Origin: an uncultured Akkermansia sp.
GTDB taxonomy: Bacteria > Verrucomicrobiota > Verrucomicrobiia > Verrucomicrobiales > DEV007
NCBI GenBank assembly: GCA_964552315.1
Contig: CAZKGI010000017.1
Coordinates: 732 to 64,731, forward strand
Reading direction: 5' to 3'
DNA: 64,000 nucleotides
In this document: in pieces, positions 24,580-29,863 of the stretch
How the letters are laid out: the number at the start of each line of letters is the position of its first letter
How positions within the stretch are numbered: position 1 is the stretch's first letter
Program-made: the position numbers and the translations under genes
Notes under the pieces: model-generated
The model's database searches: none
What the model was told of the DNA's origin: nothing
What the model saw: the letters and a program-made list of their open reading frames with translations, nothing else

Positions 24580-26637
24580 TCAGAAGCGGAAGCTCAGGCC
24601 GCCGCCGATGCCGTGGTCGGAATGGTATTCCGATATGAGCGAGAAACGTTTGTTGAGGAGATACTCCGCGCCCGCGGACCATTCCCATTCGGTGTTGGTG
24701 TCGTACTCGATCTCGGCGAAAACGGAGATCCGGTCCGTCAGTCGCAGTGACTTGCCGAGGCCCAGGCGGAAATCGCCCTCGCTGTCCACTTGGAGAAAAC
24801 TCTCGATGAGGTAGGGGAGCCGGTATTCGATCCCCCCGAAGGCGCGGTCGGTAGCGTGAGGTTCGTTGGTGAGGCGGGCCCCCAGCACCGTGGAGAAATT
24901 GGGATTGAAGTAGCGGCTCCAGGCGAGGTCAATTTCGTAGTGGGCCGAGTCGAGATCGAAGTCGTGCCAGCCGATGTCCCACATGGCGTAGTAGTCGTTG
25001 CGGGTGTTCATGAGGCTGGCCATGCCCATGCTCATGTGGGTTTGCAGGGAGCCGGCGGCCATGAAGTAGAAGGGGTCTGCATCGTGCTCTCCGAAATCGA
25101 CGCGGTGATCCTCCCCCTGTTCCTCGTAGGAGAAGACCCGGGTCATGCCCATGTGCATGTGATAGAGCAGGTGACAGTGAAAGAGCCAGTCGCCGCTCTC
25201 GTTGGCCTCGAACTCGACGCTGCGCTTGCCCATGGGCGGGAGATCGACGGTGTGCTTGAGCGGGGCGTCGGGGAGCTCCCGCGAGTCGAGCACGCGGAAG
25301 AAGTGGCCGTGAAGATGCAGGGGATGGTGCATCATGGTGTCGTTGATCAGCTCGAGGCGGAGCACCTCCCCGCGCCGCACGCGGATGACGCCGTCCTCGG
25401 CCAGGGTCTTGCCGTTGAAGGACCAGATGTAGCGCTCCATGTCCCCGGTGAGGCGGAGCTCGATGGTGCGACGCGGCAGGGCGGGGTTGAGCCGGGTCTC
25501 CGAGACGGCGCGCAGGCGGGCATAGGGTGGCAGGGGCCGTTCCGGCTCGGTGGCGAGGGCCTCGGCATCACTAGACGGGATGTCCACCTCGTCGTCCTCC
25601 AGGGCGGCGAGGAGGTGGTCGTCCATGTTGTAGACATTGGGCCGAGGGATGTCCGGGGCGCGGTGGACCTCGCCCTGACCCAGCCAGATCGAGGCCTGCC
25701 CCGAGCCGTCCTGGGCAGTGGCCCGCAGTTCCCATCGCCCGTGCTTGGGAACGGTGAGGAGAACATCGTAGGTCTCGGCCATGCCGACGAGAAGCCGATT
25801 CACCTGGATGGGTTTCACCGCGGGGCCGTCGGCGGCCACAATGCGCAGGGGGCCGGTGGCGGACTGCAGGTAGAAATAGGTCGAGGCGGCCGCATTGATG
25901 AAGCGCAGCCGGACCGTCTCTCCATTGCGAATGCCCGGATCGTGCTCGCGCCTGCCGTTGGCGAGGAAGGCGTCGTAGGCCACGTCGGAAATGTCCATGG
26001 CCGGCATGCGGGAGCGCTCGCGCTCCCAGAAGGATTTCCATTCGCCAGCCTCGATGGCTCCCCAAAGGCTTTGGATGGAGCCCTTTTTGAACTCATACCA
26101 GTCATTGCCGCTCATCAGGGTGCGCATCACTTCCTCGGGGCGCTCCAGGGTCCAGTCCGAGAGGACGATCACCTCGTCGCGATCGGGGCGCTCCTTCTCG
26201 CCGTCCCGGGGTTCGACGACGATGGACCCATAGACGCCGTTTTGCTCCTGGAGGCCGGTGTGGCTGTGATACCAGTAGGTCCCGGCGTGGCGCAGCTGGA
26301 ATTGGAAGGTGTGGGTCGTTCCCGGTCGGATCGGCGGGGTGGTGACGTGCGGGACCCCGTCCTCCGCATTGGGAACGAGGAGCCCGTGCCAGTGGATCGA
26401 AGTTTCCTCCTTGCGCAGCTGGTTGTGCACCCGGATGCGCACGGTTTCTCCCTCGCGGAAGCGCAGGGTGGGGCCGGGAATCCCCCCGTTGACGGTCAGG
26501 GCCCGGACGGGCCGCAGGCTTTCGTCGGGCGTCCACTTCGTTTCGGCAATGACCAAGTCGTATTCCCGGTCAGCGGGGCCCTTCGGGGCGGGGCTGAGTC
26601 CGCAGGCGAGACAGAGAAAGGGAATCAGGGCGTTCAT
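24580..26637 (-). CDS. Multicopper oxidase with C-terminal CopB-like beta-barrel
   Basis: Cu ligand motifs HWHG, WYHSH, HPLHLHGH and HCHLLYHM; C-terminal about 160 aa of alternating beta strands ending in Phe. Confidence 0.9.
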   Translation of the reverse strand: MNALIPFLCLACGLSPAPKGPADREYDLVIAETKWTPDESLRPVRALTVNGGIPGPTLRFREGETVRIRVHNQLRKEETSIHWHGLLVPNAEDGVPHVTTPPIRPGTTHTFQFQLRHAGTYWYHSHTGLQEQNGVYGSIVVEPRDGEKERPDRDEVIVLSDWTLERPEEVMRTLMSGNDWYEFKKGSIQSLWGAIEAGEWKSFWERERSRMPAMDISDVAYDAFLANGRREHDPGIRNGETVRLRFINAAASTYFYLQSATGPLRIVAADGPAVKPIQVNRLLVGMAETYDVLLTVPKHGRWELRATAQDGSGQASIWLGQGEVHRAPDIPRPNVYNMDDHLLAALEDDEVDIPSSDAEALATEPERPLPPYARLRAVSETRLNPALPRRTIELRLTGDMERYIWSFNGKTLAEDGVIRVRRGEVLRLELINDTMMHHPLHLHGHFFRVLDSRELPDAPLKHTVDLPPMGKRSVEFEANESGDWLFHCHLLYHMHMGMTRVFSYEEQGEDHRVDFGEHDADPFYFMAAGSLQTHMSMGMASLMNTRNDYYAMWDIGWHDFDLDSAHYEIDLAWSRYFNPNFSTVLGARLTNEPHATDRAFGGIEYRLPYLIESFLQVDSEGDFRLGLGKSLRLTDRISVFAEIEYDTNTEWEWSAGAEYLLNKRFSLISEYHSDHGIGGGLSFRF

Positions 26638-26660: not shown

Positions 26661-28856
26661 TCAGGCGAGCTGCATTCGGCGGAGCCGCAGGGCGTTGGCG
26701 ATCACCGAGACCGAGGACAGGGACATCGCCGCGCCGGCGAGCATCGGGTTGAGCAGGGTCCCGGTGAAGGGATAGAGAAGACCCGCGGCGATGGGAATGC
26801 CGAGGGCGTTGTAGAAGAAGGCAAAGAAGAGGTTCTGCCGGATGTTGCGCATGGTCGCCCGGCTCAGGGCGATGGCCCGGTCGATCCCGGCGAGGTCGCC
26901 CTTCACCAAGGTGACCGCAGCGCTCTCGATGGCCGCGTCGCTGCCGGTTCCCATGGCGATGCCGACCTGGGCCTCAGCCAGGGCGGGGGCGTCGTTGATG
27001 CCATCCCCGGCCATGGCCACGATGTGGCCCTGCTCCTTCAGCTCGCGGATGAGGGCGATCTTGTCCACCGGGCTCAAGCCGGCGTGGACCTCGTCGATGC
27101 CGAGAACCTTGCCCACGGCCGCGGCGGTGCGGGGATTGTCACCGCTGGCCATGATCACCCGCAGACCGCGCTGGTGCAGGGCGGCGATGGCGGAAGGACT
27201 GGCGTCGTGGATCGGGTCGGCGATGCCGAGCAGGCCGATGACCTGTCCGTCGCGGGACACCCAGACGACGGTTTGGGCCTGGCGCTCCAGCGATTCCGCC
27301 TGGAGCAGCAGATCGGAGGGAATCTCCACGTTGCGACCTTGCAGGAAGGCGGGTGTTCCCACCAGCACCTCGTGTCCGTCCACCTTTCCAGAGACTCCCC
27401 CGCCGGTGGTGGAGGCAAAGTGCTCCGCCCCCGGGAGGGACAGCTCGCGATCCCGCGCCGCGGTGACGATGGCCCGGGCGAGCGGGTGTTCCGAGGCGGA
27501 CTCCAAAGAGGCCGCGAGCCGAAGTAGCTCCTCGACCTTCACGCCCGGGATCGTCAACTCGGTGACGAGGCGGGGTTTTCCTGCAGTGAGGGTGCCGGTC
27601 TTGTCCACCACCAGGGTGTCGACCTGGCCCGTCAGTTCGATGGCCTCGGCATTTTTTACGAGAATGCCCAACTGCGCGGCACGTCCCACCCCGACCATAA
27701 TGGACATGGGTGTGGCCAGTCCGAGGGCGCAGGGACAGGCGATGATAAGCACCGAGACGGCGTTGACCAAGGCGAAGGCCAGGGCGGGCGCCGGTCCCCA
27801 GAGGGCCCAAAGGGCAAAGGTCAGCAGGGCGGCGAGTACGACGAGGGGCACGAACCAGCGCGCCACTCGGTCGACCAGGTTCTGCACGGGCGCCCGGCTG
27901 CGTTGGGCCTCGGCGACCAGCTGGATGATGCGGGCCAGCAGAGTCTCGCGACCGACCTTTTCCGCCTCCATCAGGAAGGAGCCGGTTTGGTTGACGGTGC
28001 CGCCGATGAGGACATCTCCCGCGGCCTTAGCCACCGGCAGAGGTTCTCCGCTGATCATGGACTCATCCACATAGCTCTGCCCCGACCGGAGGCGGCCGTC
28101 CACCGGGACGATTTCTCCGGGACGAACGCGGAGGAGGTCTCCCACTTGCAGCTGGTCGAGGGGAACCTCTTCCTCCTTGCCATCGACAAGGCGGTGGGCG
28201 GATTTCGCGGCGAGGCCGAGCAGGGCCTGGATGGCCTGGCCCGTGCGCAGGCGGGCCCGCGCCTCGAGCCGCTGGCCGAAGAGAACCAGCACGGTGATCA
28301 CCGCGGCGGCTTCGAAATAGAGGCCGACCTCGCCGTGATGGCGGAAGGAGGCGGGGAAAAGCCCGGGAGCGAAGACGGCGACCAGGCTGAACAAGTAGGC
28401 GGCGCCCACGCCCAGGGAAATCAGGGTGAACATGTTGGGGCTGCGGTGCTGCAGGGAGCGCCAGCCCTTTAGGAAAAAGCTTCCTCCCGCCCAGAGCACC
28501 ACCGGGGTGGCGAGTGCGGCTTCGATCCACTTCGCCAGCGACCTCGGGAGGCGTTCGCCCAGACCGGGAATCATGCCCCCCATGGCGAGAAGAAAGACGG
28601 GCACCGTCAGGATGAGGCCGATCCAGAATTTTCGCGAGAGCTCGCGGATCTCCCGCAGGGCCTGGTCGTCGTCCTCGTCGTCGGTCCCGGTGGGCAGCCA
28701 GGCCGGATTGCGTTCCAGGGCCATGCCGCATTTGGGGCAGTCCCCCGCCTCGTCGGACTCCACGCCGGGACACATTGGGCAGAAGTATTTGGCCTCGGAG
28801 GGAGGAACGACCGCTTCTTCGCCGTGATGGTCGCAATGGCCGCAACAATGGCTCAT
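26661..28856 (-). CDS. copA: Cu(I)-translocating P1B-1 ATPase
   Basis: CPC in [37 protein letters not shown] and MxxSS; N-terminal HCCGHCDHH and CPMCP..CPKCGM metal-binding domain. Confidence 0.95.
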
Positions 28857-28890
28857 GGGCATATCCTCGACGGACTCCGTCGGGGTGCAA

Positions 28891-28933
28891 GAAAAACCCC
28901 GCCCGTCACCCCGGGGTGACGGACGGGGCGTTT
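28891..28933 (-). terminator. Intrinsic terminator after the small metal-binding protein gene
   Basis: Minus strand CCCCGTCCGTCACC-ccgg-GGTGACGGGCGGGG followed by TTTTTCTT. Confidence 0.75.
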
Positions 28934-28950: not shown

Positions 28951-29178
28951 TCACTTCAGCTTCGCCAGGTACTTGGCCGGGTTGGCGTTGAATTTCTTCA
29001 CGCAGGGTTTGCAGCAGAACTTCACCTGCTGGCCCTCGTAGACCATGGTCACGACTTTGCCCATGCTTCCCAGTTCATTGTCCGTGACGAGGCACATTTT
29101 GCTGGGGTAGGGCGTGGCGGCCGCGGCCAAGCCGAGGCCGAGGAGGAGAACAGTGAGAGAGGCGAGTAGAGTTTTCAT
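28951..29178 (-). CDS. Small exported YHS/TRASH-like metal-binding protein
   Basis: Signal peptide; [32 protein letters not shown] pattern. Confidence 0.8.
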
Positions 29179-29392
29179 CAGAATAAGGGTGTTATGTTAG
29201 GATTCTAGATTGGGGTGTTGAATGAAGTCGGGTGGGCGATTCGCCCTGCTGGGGAGGCTTCCCGGCGCTGCCCTCGCGGTGGCGTGGACGAATGGCGACA
29301 GTCCGTCGCCGGCGTGCGGGGCGTCCCGCGGGATCGGCGGGAGCCGCGAGCTCCGCCCCGCGCTGGGACCGGTCCGGGAAGGGTCCGGGGAA

Positions 29393-29770
29393 TCAAATGA
29401 GGAAGCTTTGGCGAAGGGCCAAGCCGAGTCGTGGGGGACCGGGATCCGGGGGGATCGGAGCCGGATGTCTCCGCACTTCCCGGGAGGGATTCGGCTCCAG
29501 GGACAGCTCGCTGCGCTCCGTGAGGAAGAGGCCGTCGAGGGAAGGCAGGGAGAGTTTTCCGCTGTCCACCGCGCGGGCCTTGACGGCCAGGCAGCTGTCG
29601 CAGGGAAGCTCCTCGCGGCCATCGGAATCCGTCGCCTCTGGGGAGGCGCAGCAGGAATGCGCCTCCGTCTCCGCAGCCGGGCTGGCCAGCAGAGCACCAC
29701 TGCAACAGCAGAACGGGCTTGCGACGAAAAGCGCAAGCAGGACTGAAAAAGTGCGGTGGAGGAGACTCAT
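29393..29770 (-). CDS. Cys- and Pro-rich exported small protein (DUF2946/CutF/CruR-like leader)
   Basis: Hydrophobic N-terminus, CCC, HSCC, CDSC and C-terminal PAPIPPDPGPPRL; first gene upstream of the copper cluster. Confidence 0.6.
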   Translation of the reverse strand: MSLLHRTFSVLLALFVASPFCCCSGALLASPAAETEAHSCCASPEATDSDGREELPCDSCLAVKARAVDSGKLSLPSLDGLFLTERSELSLEPNPSREVRRHPAPIPPDPGPPRLGLALRQSFLI

Positions 29771-29863
29771 GCGGGACTTCAGGTTCGACTACCCGAGAGC
29801 GCCGGCGTTCAAAATTCGGAGGTGATCCTCTGCGCCCGGGCCCTCATCGGACAGAAACGGGGC

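Follow-up and report, generated by a model that had tools for sequence, protein, structure and literature searches.

We analyzed a 64,000-nucleotide (nt) stretch of DNA from an uncultured Akkermansia sp. (contig CAZKGI010000017.1, positions 732 to 64,731; here called the window). An open reading frame (ORF) of 125 amino acids (aa) on its minus strand, placed at the head of a copper cluster, is a real gene of a large and so far nameless family of Verrucomicrobiota. The ORF probably serves as a cis-acting, co-translationally exported copper sensor, in which ribosome occupancy at the end of the ORF would control the next gene. An earlier, sequence-only reading of the locus had proposed a leader peptide of the CutF and CruR type in an organism resembling the Planctomycetes-Verrucomicrobia-Chlamydiae group. 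The source is indeed a member of Verrucomicrobiota, and the proposed architecture and context were confirmed: the product is small, signal-like at its N-terminus and Cys-rich, it carries PP within the last 15 residues, and the gene stands at the head of the copper cluster, followed by a long spacer.

Translation of the ORF yields MSLLHRTFSVLLALFVASPFCCCSGALLASPAAETEAHSCCASPEATDSDGREELPCDSCLAVKARAVDSGKLSLPSLDGLFLTERSELSLEPNPSREVRRHPAPIPPDPGPPRLGLALRQSFLI, which starts with MSLLHRTFSVLLALFVASPFCCCSG, continues through HSCC and CDSC and ends with PAPIPPDPGPPRLGLALRQSFLI. The signal-like N-terminus and the three Cys motifs are all present as described earlier, with CCC at residues 21–23, SCC at 39–41 and CDSC at 57–60; small residues follow CCC (e.g. 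ALLA followed by S). The Pro-rich stretch, with PPRL at residues 112–115, was also found, but it does not form the C-terminus as had been stated, because the ten residues GLALRQSFLI come after PAPIPPDPGPPRL. This tail is the best-conserved part of the family. AlphaFold2, run on the window ORF with the family alignment, predicted helices only at residues 3–24 and 114–124, the latter with a predicted local distance difference test score (pLDDT) of about 82. Residues 25–110 had a pLDDT of about 50, the predicted template modelling score was 0.22, and no folded domain was found in the predicted structure. Searches of Pfam and NCBIfam with the window ORF gave no family match.

Six-frame searches recovered homologues of the ORF in 10 of 41 related genomes, in addition to a paralogue on a separate contig of the source genome. 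A word-indexed homologue search returned a 98%-identical copy as its sole match, and a pattern scan of GTDB genomes, for which the pattern was built from 5 closer sequences, gave 21 loci with titles that all referred to Verrucomicrobiales, Akkermansiaceae, Haloferula, Luteolibacter or Verrucomicrobiota. With a profile built from 22 members, the number of representative clusters matched was 468 at E ≤ 1e-3 and 76 at 1e-10. Lengths ranged from 108 to 178 aa among the 150 profile matches listed, and the few named family members were all from Verrucomicrobiota. In an even sample across this phylum, the family was present in 10 of 301 genomes. A chance ORF is ruled out by conservation and by the gene context.

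The features that stayed constant were the short signal-like N-terminus ending in NPxCCC, the SCC motif, the CxC or CxxC motif, a near-invariant PP and a tail of about 12 residues running up to FLI-TGA. Among 129 diverse members, P19, C21, C41 and C57 were invariant, while C22, C23, C40, C60, P112 and P113 were kept in at least 90% of the sequences; in alignments including others than this set, P19, C21 and C23 were invariant. The central Cys motif was CxC in 108 and CxxC in 14 of the 129 members. The distance from this motif to PP (C57 to P112) had a median of 54 residues (interquartile range 53–55, n=126 sequences), despite the fact that the residues in between are unconserved and clade-dependent, which argues for a spacing that behaves like a molecular ruler. 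The sequence-only reading had proposed, as a check, the conservation of the Cys and PPR motifs upstream of copper genes; the Cys motifs and PP are nearly invariant, and a metal gene always comes next.

At the C-terminal end, PP is followed rather than preceded by R and lies most often 12 residues from the C-terminus (range 10–30), with the family consensus PPP-R-x-(L/R)-L-A-L-(Y/H)-(C/Q/S)-(R/V)-(F/Y/W)-L-(I/L)-stop. The tail of the nearest clade contains PPPRL, which are also the last five residues of CutF. The leader stop codon was TGA in 24 of 27 loci. When the final 17 codons were compared across 11 loci, the columns of six residues (the first P, L, L, Q, L and I) showed 24–42 synonymous and no nonsynonymous pairwise differences. 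For the first P codon of PP, the counts were 42 synonymous and 0 nonsynonymous, as compared to 32 and 10 for the second. Since the six columns differ synonymously only, we conclude that the peptide itself, and not the RNA alone, is under selection. A near-identical copy of the locus in another strain (L061; family loci are labelled L) differs from that of the window at 7 of 1015 nt. The spacer and the following YHS gene are free of differences, of which 5 fall within the leader and 2 past the YHS stop codon.

The gene that follows the leader encodes a metal-related protein, and the spacer before it measures 99–266 nt in all loci examined; in the window, the gap from copA to the gene for the multicopper oxidase (MCO) is 23 nt. 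The downstream gene encodes an MCO in L015, L018-L020, L022, L028, L046 and L047, a YHS protein in the window, L014, L016, L017, L059, L061, L007 and L030, and an OEP/CusC protein, followed by CusB, in L008, L009, L021, L023, L024, L034, L062 and L063. In other loci, the leader precedes either a gene for a conserved 206-aa protein, after which an HMA protein is encoded, or a gene for a DUF6370 protein. The earlier suggestion that the target differs from those of the known systems does not apply across the family, since relatives stand directly before an MCO or a CusC-type gene.

A GC-rich hairpin begins 3–13 nt past the leader stop across the family, with variants such as GAGCGGC-CCTTC-GCCGCTC, GGTCGGC/GCCGACC and GGCGGC/GCCGCC, among others. 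In 13 loci, 85% of the hairpin was paired, as compared to 76% in shuffled sequences. Covariation was evident from 9 cells with changes on both sides of the stem, spread over 4 of 8 pairs, a result that none of 500 shuffles reached, and slid controls gave far lower values. A kissing interaction of the CCUUC loop with downstream GGAAGG-like sequences was also considered and dropped, the differences between L020 and L028 being judged by eye as not compensatory.

The last codons of the leader, its stop and about 12 nt thereafter pair with the 45 nt before the start of the next gene, as seen in per-locus duplex tests. The strands extend from −10 to +13 around the leader stop and from −32 to −5 before the next ATG. 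Duplex tests against dinucleotide shuffles were used because the MAFFT alignment of spacers in the clade with the 206-aa target was not structure-aware enough for pair counts. Of 32 non-redundant loci, 16 showed significant pairing (p<0.05), and in 9 the p value was below 0.01; the combined value (Fisher, 2e-15) overstates the independence of loci that are phylogenetically related, as the shuffle statistics take no account of phylogeny. Masking of the stop region, which mimics a ribosome in the act of termination, raised the predicted accessibility of the initiation region by 0.13–0.46 in 17 of 34 modelled loci. The paired sequences vary by clade and are always anchored on the stop (GTGAGGAAA/TTTCCTCAC, GTGACAAGGG/CCCTTGTTAC and CTGATTTGATCGAAAACGAGG/CCTC..CGTTTTC..AAATCAG). 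L059, which has the same tail and target as the window, displays a helix of about 19 bp between the stop and the initiation region (p 0.005).

The best-studied counterpart is CutF of Rhodobacter capsulatus (cutFOG), a 118-aa peptide with C69xxxC73 and the tail P109EPEGPPPRL118; the sequence-only reading had given the latter correctly as PEPEGPPPRL. The signal peptide, the Cys motif and PPP of CutF are all needed for copper-induced translation of cutO via melting of a stem-loop (PMC8456105, PMC9973294, bioRxiv 10.1101/2025.02.05.636593). CutF is a small exported Cys-motif peptide that acts only in cis as the first gene before an MCO, and many relatives of the window ORF likewise lie directly before an MCO, with export and cis action predicted. 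PPPRL is common to CutF and the nearest clade of the leader family, and the targets in both cases are copper-detoxification genes. In CutF, an RNA structure hides the next initiation region until opened by a ribosome at the leader end, and the same is predicted for the leader family. However, PPPRL ends CutF but is followed by 10–12 conserved residues in the leader family, and the single CxxxC of CutF is replaced by CCC, SCC and CxC. The short stem-loop beside the CutF stop contrasts with a spacer of 99–266 nt and a long-range helix, and the leader family falls beyond the DUF2946 model and in the phylum Verrucomicrobiota. The window departs further from CutF, with a YHS protein as its first target and no evident masking helix.

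CruR (Bp2923) of Bordetella pertussis, which like CutF is filed under DUF2946 (PF11162), has CXXC at residues 90–93, RAPP at 139–142, three residues before the end, and a 162-nt spacer. Copper relieves the arrest, resulting in Rho-dependent termination before an importer gene, so that copper means off. The CruR peptide was reported to be poorly structured, the rut site lies in a C>G bubble, and the spacing from Cys to PP is conserved in DUF2946 (PMC9426467). The leader family resembles CruR in its signal-like N-terminus, in the conserved distance from Cys to PP (46–48 residues in CruR, 54 in the leader family) and in a long GC-rich spacer (162 nt in CruR, 214 nt in the window) and C>G bubbles, and both peptides are predicted to be unstructured. 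It differs in that RAPP lies three residues before the stop in CruR, whereas PP-R lies 12 residues before the stop in the leader family, in that the targets are exporters or detoxifiers rather than an importer, and in that the Pfam model gives no match. CopL of Xanthomonas and Stenotrophomonas, together with both SilD/CusD and CzcI of Cupriavidus metallidurans, have been grouped as CutF-like (PMC9973294). These too are small and Cys/His-rich, and their genes come first, ahead of an MCO (copL-copA) or a resistance-nodulation-division efflux system (silDCBA, cusDCBAF, czcICBA), as in the MCO- and OEP-type loci of the leader family. Their clusters are proteobacterial, however; none has the NPxCCC signature or PP with a 12-residue tail, and CzcI lacks a Pro motif.

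Membership in DUF2946, for which the sequence-only reading had proposed a search, was not supported. The Pfam model (gathering score 23.7 bits) did not match the window ORF at E ≤ 1, nor did it match any of 22 family members, and 3 of 129 members matched weakly (best E 0.021). A six-frame DUF2946 search of the source genome and 40 relatives gave nothing above the cut-off, while the control genome of Caulobacter was matched. Canonical DUF2946 genes are rare in Verrucomicrobiota (4 of 301 genomes). They encode CPxC and RAPP or RGPP plus 2–5 residues at the end (RGPPNA, RAPPCMTV, CGPPA and RAPPVQIAA), and they lie before genes for TonB-dependent receptors; a word-indexed search with a canonical query returned the query alone. 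RAPP (or R/G-x-PP) 2–5 residues before the C-terminus is not found in the leader family. The assumed position of the arrest motif was also incorrect, with PP located 12 residues from the stop as compared to 2–3 in CutF and CruR. The conserved Cys-to-PP spacing typical of DUF2946 does have a counterpart in the leader family. In a comparison by hhalign of the family with the four canonical Verrucomicrobiota proteins, the Cys region alone aligned (probability 72%, pairwise E 3.5e-5), and for one of these proteins the hidden Markov model of the family gave a score of 12 bits, with PP and the Cys motifs in register. Remote homology, as judged from these alignments, is possible but unproven. Because the Pfam model fails to match and PP is not C-terminal, the tests that were run set the family apart from DUF2946, and we file it as a putative new variant of the CutF/CruR kind.

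Ozturk et al. 2023, who retrieved candidates by iterative jackhmmer from CutF seeds, filtered CutF-like proteins by a length of <150 aa, PP among the final 15 residues and a neighbouring gene on the same strand no more than 1000 nt away (PMC9973294). The leader family passes these three filters, and so does the window ORF, with 125 aa, P112-P113 located 13–14 residues from the end and the YHS gene 214 nt downstream on the same strand. A predicted N-terminal signal peptide is also part of their definition, and in this region the ORF has a basic residue, then about 13 hydrophobic residues, and a predicted helix at 3–24. The survey was dominated by Pseudomonadota and Bacteroidota (PMC9973294), and Verrucomicrobiota are not named in the main text of that paper.

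In the mechanism that we propose, the signal-like N-terminus would send the nascent chain to the Sec translocon, and the three Cys clusters (CCC at the end of the hydrophobic segment, SCC and CxC/CxxC) would emerge on the periplasmic side before translation of the C-terminal module (PP-R, the helical tail of about 12 residues and TGA) is complete. Binding of Cu(I) to the nascent chain would alter the dwell time of the ribosome at the end of the ORF, and expression of the downstream metal gene would then depend on whether a ribosome occupies the last codons and the stop. In about half of the family, a ribosome at the stop would free the initiation region (−32 to −5) from its partner strand (−10 to +13). 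The leader-family targets are copper-detoxification genes, and induction by copper is therefore to be expected. The geometry agrees with two sub-models, each of which results in such induction. With a logic like that of CutF, copper would lengthen a pause at or near the stop, with PP about 12 residues inside the tunnel. With a logic like that of CruR, copper-driven compaction of the Cys-rich chain would pull the ribosome off an arrest on PP, such that the ribosome proceeds to the stop and the helix opens.

A more specific version is that the family is an independently evolved, or extremely diverged, transmembrane metal-sensing arrest peptide of Verrucomicrobiota, with a sensor that includes a triple Cys at the periplasmic end of the signal sequence and a pause at TGA rather than at the prolines; this we regard as unlikely. 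PP would then be situated about 12–13 residues inside the exit tunnel near the constriction, with the helical tail filling the upper tunnel, and the paused ribosome would cover exactly the −10 to +13 strand that masks the next initiation region.

Several observations weigh against the proposed sensor, in addition to the shared ancestry of the loci in the combined duplex statistics. PP is located 36 nt before the stop, and a ribosome arrested there would not reach the helix, which makes the point of arrest uncertain. Together with the conservation of the peptide right up to the stop, this mildly favours the CutF-like sub-model over the CruR-like one. The Pro motif of CutF is by itself a weak staller, and translational coupling by a long-range helix would equally suit a functional small protein. 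Moreover, the clearest mechanistic evidence comes from the relatives, and the RNA evidence in the window is the weakest of the family. The three hairpins named in the sequence-only reading exist in the sequence (GGCGAC-GGACT-GTCGCC at 29294-29310, GGGCG-AAT-CGCCC at 29234-29246 and an imperfect stem at 29327-29362), but the spacer shows no folding advantage over its dinucleotide shuffles (z −0.75; equalled by 50 of 200 shuffles), and nothing that aligns with the hairpins is present in the closest relatives. We rejected them as a signal on the basis of the folding result. The spacers of the four nearest YHS-type loci can hardly be aligned past the first 40 nt. Pairing between the stop and the initiation region was not significant in the window by the duplex test (p 0.30), and the YHS initiation region is already predicted to be open (0.66), with masking changing nothing. 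In the minimum free energy fold, the GC-rich structured half of the spacer is closed by a predicted, non-conserved pair of CCGGGAAG and CTTCCCGG. In the window, the helix between the stop and the initiation region would be vestigial, and coupling to the YHS gene, and perhaps by read-through to copA and the oxidase gene, would more likely occur via the G-poor, rut-like tract by Rho-dependent polarity of the CruR type.

A transcriptional output in the window, in which the ribosome at the leader end controls the access of Rho to C-rich tracts instead of unmasking an initiation region as in CutF, is a serious possibility, although on balance less likely than not. Two C>G bubbles point in this direction, one at 29377-29454 over the Pro-rich end of the leader (C/G 2.6) and one at 29143-29246, where 78-nt windows reach a C/G of 3.0–5.8, above the 99.9th percentile of random windows of the genome. 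The 60 nt before the YHS ATG contain 6.7% G, less than 99.5% of about 1100 gene starts. Attenuation by Rho would also be consistent with the lack of predicted masking in the window, with the failure to find an intrinsic terminator in the spacer, and with CruR, which combines a 162-nt spacer with a rut site in a C>G bubble (PMC9426467). However, stalling of the ribosome would not block a rut site that lies further downstream, which leaves the logic unclear, and the closely related L059 does have a masking helix. The G-poor leaders may also simply represent open initiation regions in a lineage without Shine-Dalgarno sequences before these genes.

The main rival to the sensor is that the ORF encodes a functional mature molecule, i.e. 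a small, disordered, Cys-rich Cu(I)-binding buffer or chaperone for the oxidase or efflux system, either periplasmic or tethered to the membrane; we consider this somewhat unlikely. The ORF would be first in the operon for stoichiometry, the helix would be ordinary translational coupling, for which long-range examples are known between ordinary gene pairs, and the tail would be a partner-binding or sorting signal. The seven conserved cysteines and the signal-like N-terminus agree with such a role, as do the position of the ORF within copper-resistance operons, beside other small metal-binding proteins (YHS, HMA and Cys-rich lipoproteins), and the fairly confident prediction of a helical C-terminal tail. 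Yet no folded domain is predicted, and a constant Cys-to-PP distance over residues that are themselves unconserved would be expected of a ruler more than of a binding surface. The tail is constant although the downstream partners differ (MCO, OEP, YHS, the 206-aa protein and DUF6370), the spacer is always at least 99 nt as compared to the packed cluster genes, and the analogues CutF and CruR are undetectable as mature proteins. A precursor of a ribosomally made and modified copper-binding peptide, similar to bufferin or methanobactin, would likewise be small, Cys-rich and, by prediction, exported in a copper context, and bufferin-type peptides are reported to be widespread (PMC11626156). Nevertheless, no modifying enzyme (MNIO/DUF692, DUF2063 or MbnBC) follows the leader in any locus examined, the neighbours being transporters and oxidases. 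We rejected this highly improbable explanation on the basis of gene context and conservation.

Copper control by nascent exported peptides is a concept only a few years old, based on two proteobacteria (CutF and CruR) and one Pfam model. The leader family is invisible to Pfam, comprises several hundred clusters and belongs to another phylum, and it would use the same logic with a different sensor, made of three Cys clusters of which one is fused to the signal sequence, a different arrest module, made of PP and the 12-residue tail, and a long-range RNA switch anchored on the stop. If so, co-translational metal sensing across the membrane would be a general and repeatedly re-engineered solution, and the fixed 54-residue ruler would provide a natural experiment on the reach that a nascent chain needs in order to sense the periplasm. 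Such sensing would further account for the regulation of copper genes in these Verrucomicrobiota where no copper-responsive transcription factor adjoins the cluster, as is the case in the window according to the ORF list and Pfam.

Coordinates of the leader, its RNA features and the surrounding copper cluster (positions in the window unless a locus is given)
Feature	Position	Strand	Remarks
Leader-like ORF	29393..29770	minus	125 aa, TGA stop; Verrucomicrobiota family without name
Signal-like N-terminus	29702..29770	minus	basic residue, hydrophobic stretch of ~13 residues, SPF, invariant CCC at end (codons 21-23, 29702-29710)
SCC, residues 39-41	29648..29656	minus	C40 and C41 invariant or nearly so in 129 sequences
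CDSC, residues 57-60	29591..29602	minus	family consensus CxC or CxxC; C57 invariant, C60 in at least 90%
PPRL, residues 112-115	29426..29437	minus	PP nearly invariant, at fixed distance from CxC motif
Tail GLALRQSFLI and TGA stop	29393..29425	minus	L, L, Q, L and I columns vary synonymously only
Spacer, leader to YHS gene	29179..29392	minus	214 nt, C 43%, G 26%; C-rich as described earlier, C excess (C−G = 0.17) near the 90th percentile among co-directional intergenic gaps of the source genome
Weak post-stop hairpin CCGG-ACCCTTC-CCGG	29374..29388	minus	degenerate copy of family hairpin (GAGCGGC-CCTTC-GCCGCTC type)
CCGGGAAG	29258..29265	minus	perfect 8-bp partner of CTTCCCGG (29374-29381)
G-poor, C-rich unstructured tract up to YHS start	29143..29246	minus	candidate Rho-utilisation site or open initiation region
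YHS/TRASH-like secreted metal-binding protein	28951..29178	minus	75 aa; first gene downstream; Pfam YHS E 1.4e-6, 28.6 bits, slightly under cut-off
Strong intrinsic terminator-like hairpin	28896..28929	minus	15 pairs and T run, 3' of YHS gene
CopA-type P1B ATPase	26661..28862	minus	N-terminal HMBD; Pfam
Multicopper oxidase with C-terminal extension	24580..26637	minus	Pfam
Cys-rich lipoprotein of ~64 aa	L015:3385-3579, L018:5851-6045, L019:5847-6041, L020:5816-6007, L028:5820-6011		

Among the four loci for which genes were called, three (L059, L062 and L063) have an upstream neighbour of the leader on the opposite strand; in the window and L061, this neighbour is a deacetylase gene of the same orientation at a distance of 93 nt. 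No sigma-70-like promoter was found in the intervening 29771-29863, which contains a weak hairpin after the deacetylase gene only. A scan for an internal sigma-70 promoter at the AT-richer end of the spacer (TAGAAT) was also negative, although a weak promoter is still possible there. The terminator-like hairpin lies between the YHS gene and copA, and the leader and the YHS gene may form a short transcript of their own, with copA and the oxidase gene expressed via read-through or from a separate promoter.

No Shine-Dalgarno sequence was visible in the 25 nt before the start codons of the family, and none of the GGAGG type was found at a functional distance before the downstream genes. A TGTCC motif is located 8–11 nt before the downstream ATG, at the position of a Shine-Dalgarno sequence, in L025, L026, L032, L049, L050, L053 and L056. 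It is complementary to the penultimate codons of the leader (AGGACA or CGGACC), which suggests that it belongs to the masking helix and is not a signal for ribosome binding.

The C-terminal extension of the oxidase in the window gave weak, sub-threshold matches only (CopB, E 0.019; outer membrane protein beta-barrel, E 0.069). The same architecture of about 685 aa is found directly after the leader in several relatives (L015, L018-L020 and L028). In MCO-type loci, the YHS gene is followed by one for a conserved lipoprotein of about 64 aa (CCAKxSCCCHGGKxAC...CCKSCxHCxR), which lacks a Pfam match and could bind Cu(I) as a small thiolate protein. In the Haloferula/Luteolibacter-type loci L025, L026, L032, L033 and L049-L057, the direct target is the conserved secreted protein of about 206 aa (...AHPVSFEGAWQLMLG...), which has no Pfam match and is followed by an HMA-domain protein. 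The second, diverged family member of the source genome (G000, contig C18:16927-17292; locus L011, 1489-1884) reads GNPICCC...HSCC...CPC... and ends with PPVSYSLLYRVWRC. A spacer of 186 nt separates this member from a gene for a 99-aa secreted Cys-rich DUF6370 protein, and the same pair is found in a related genome (L012).

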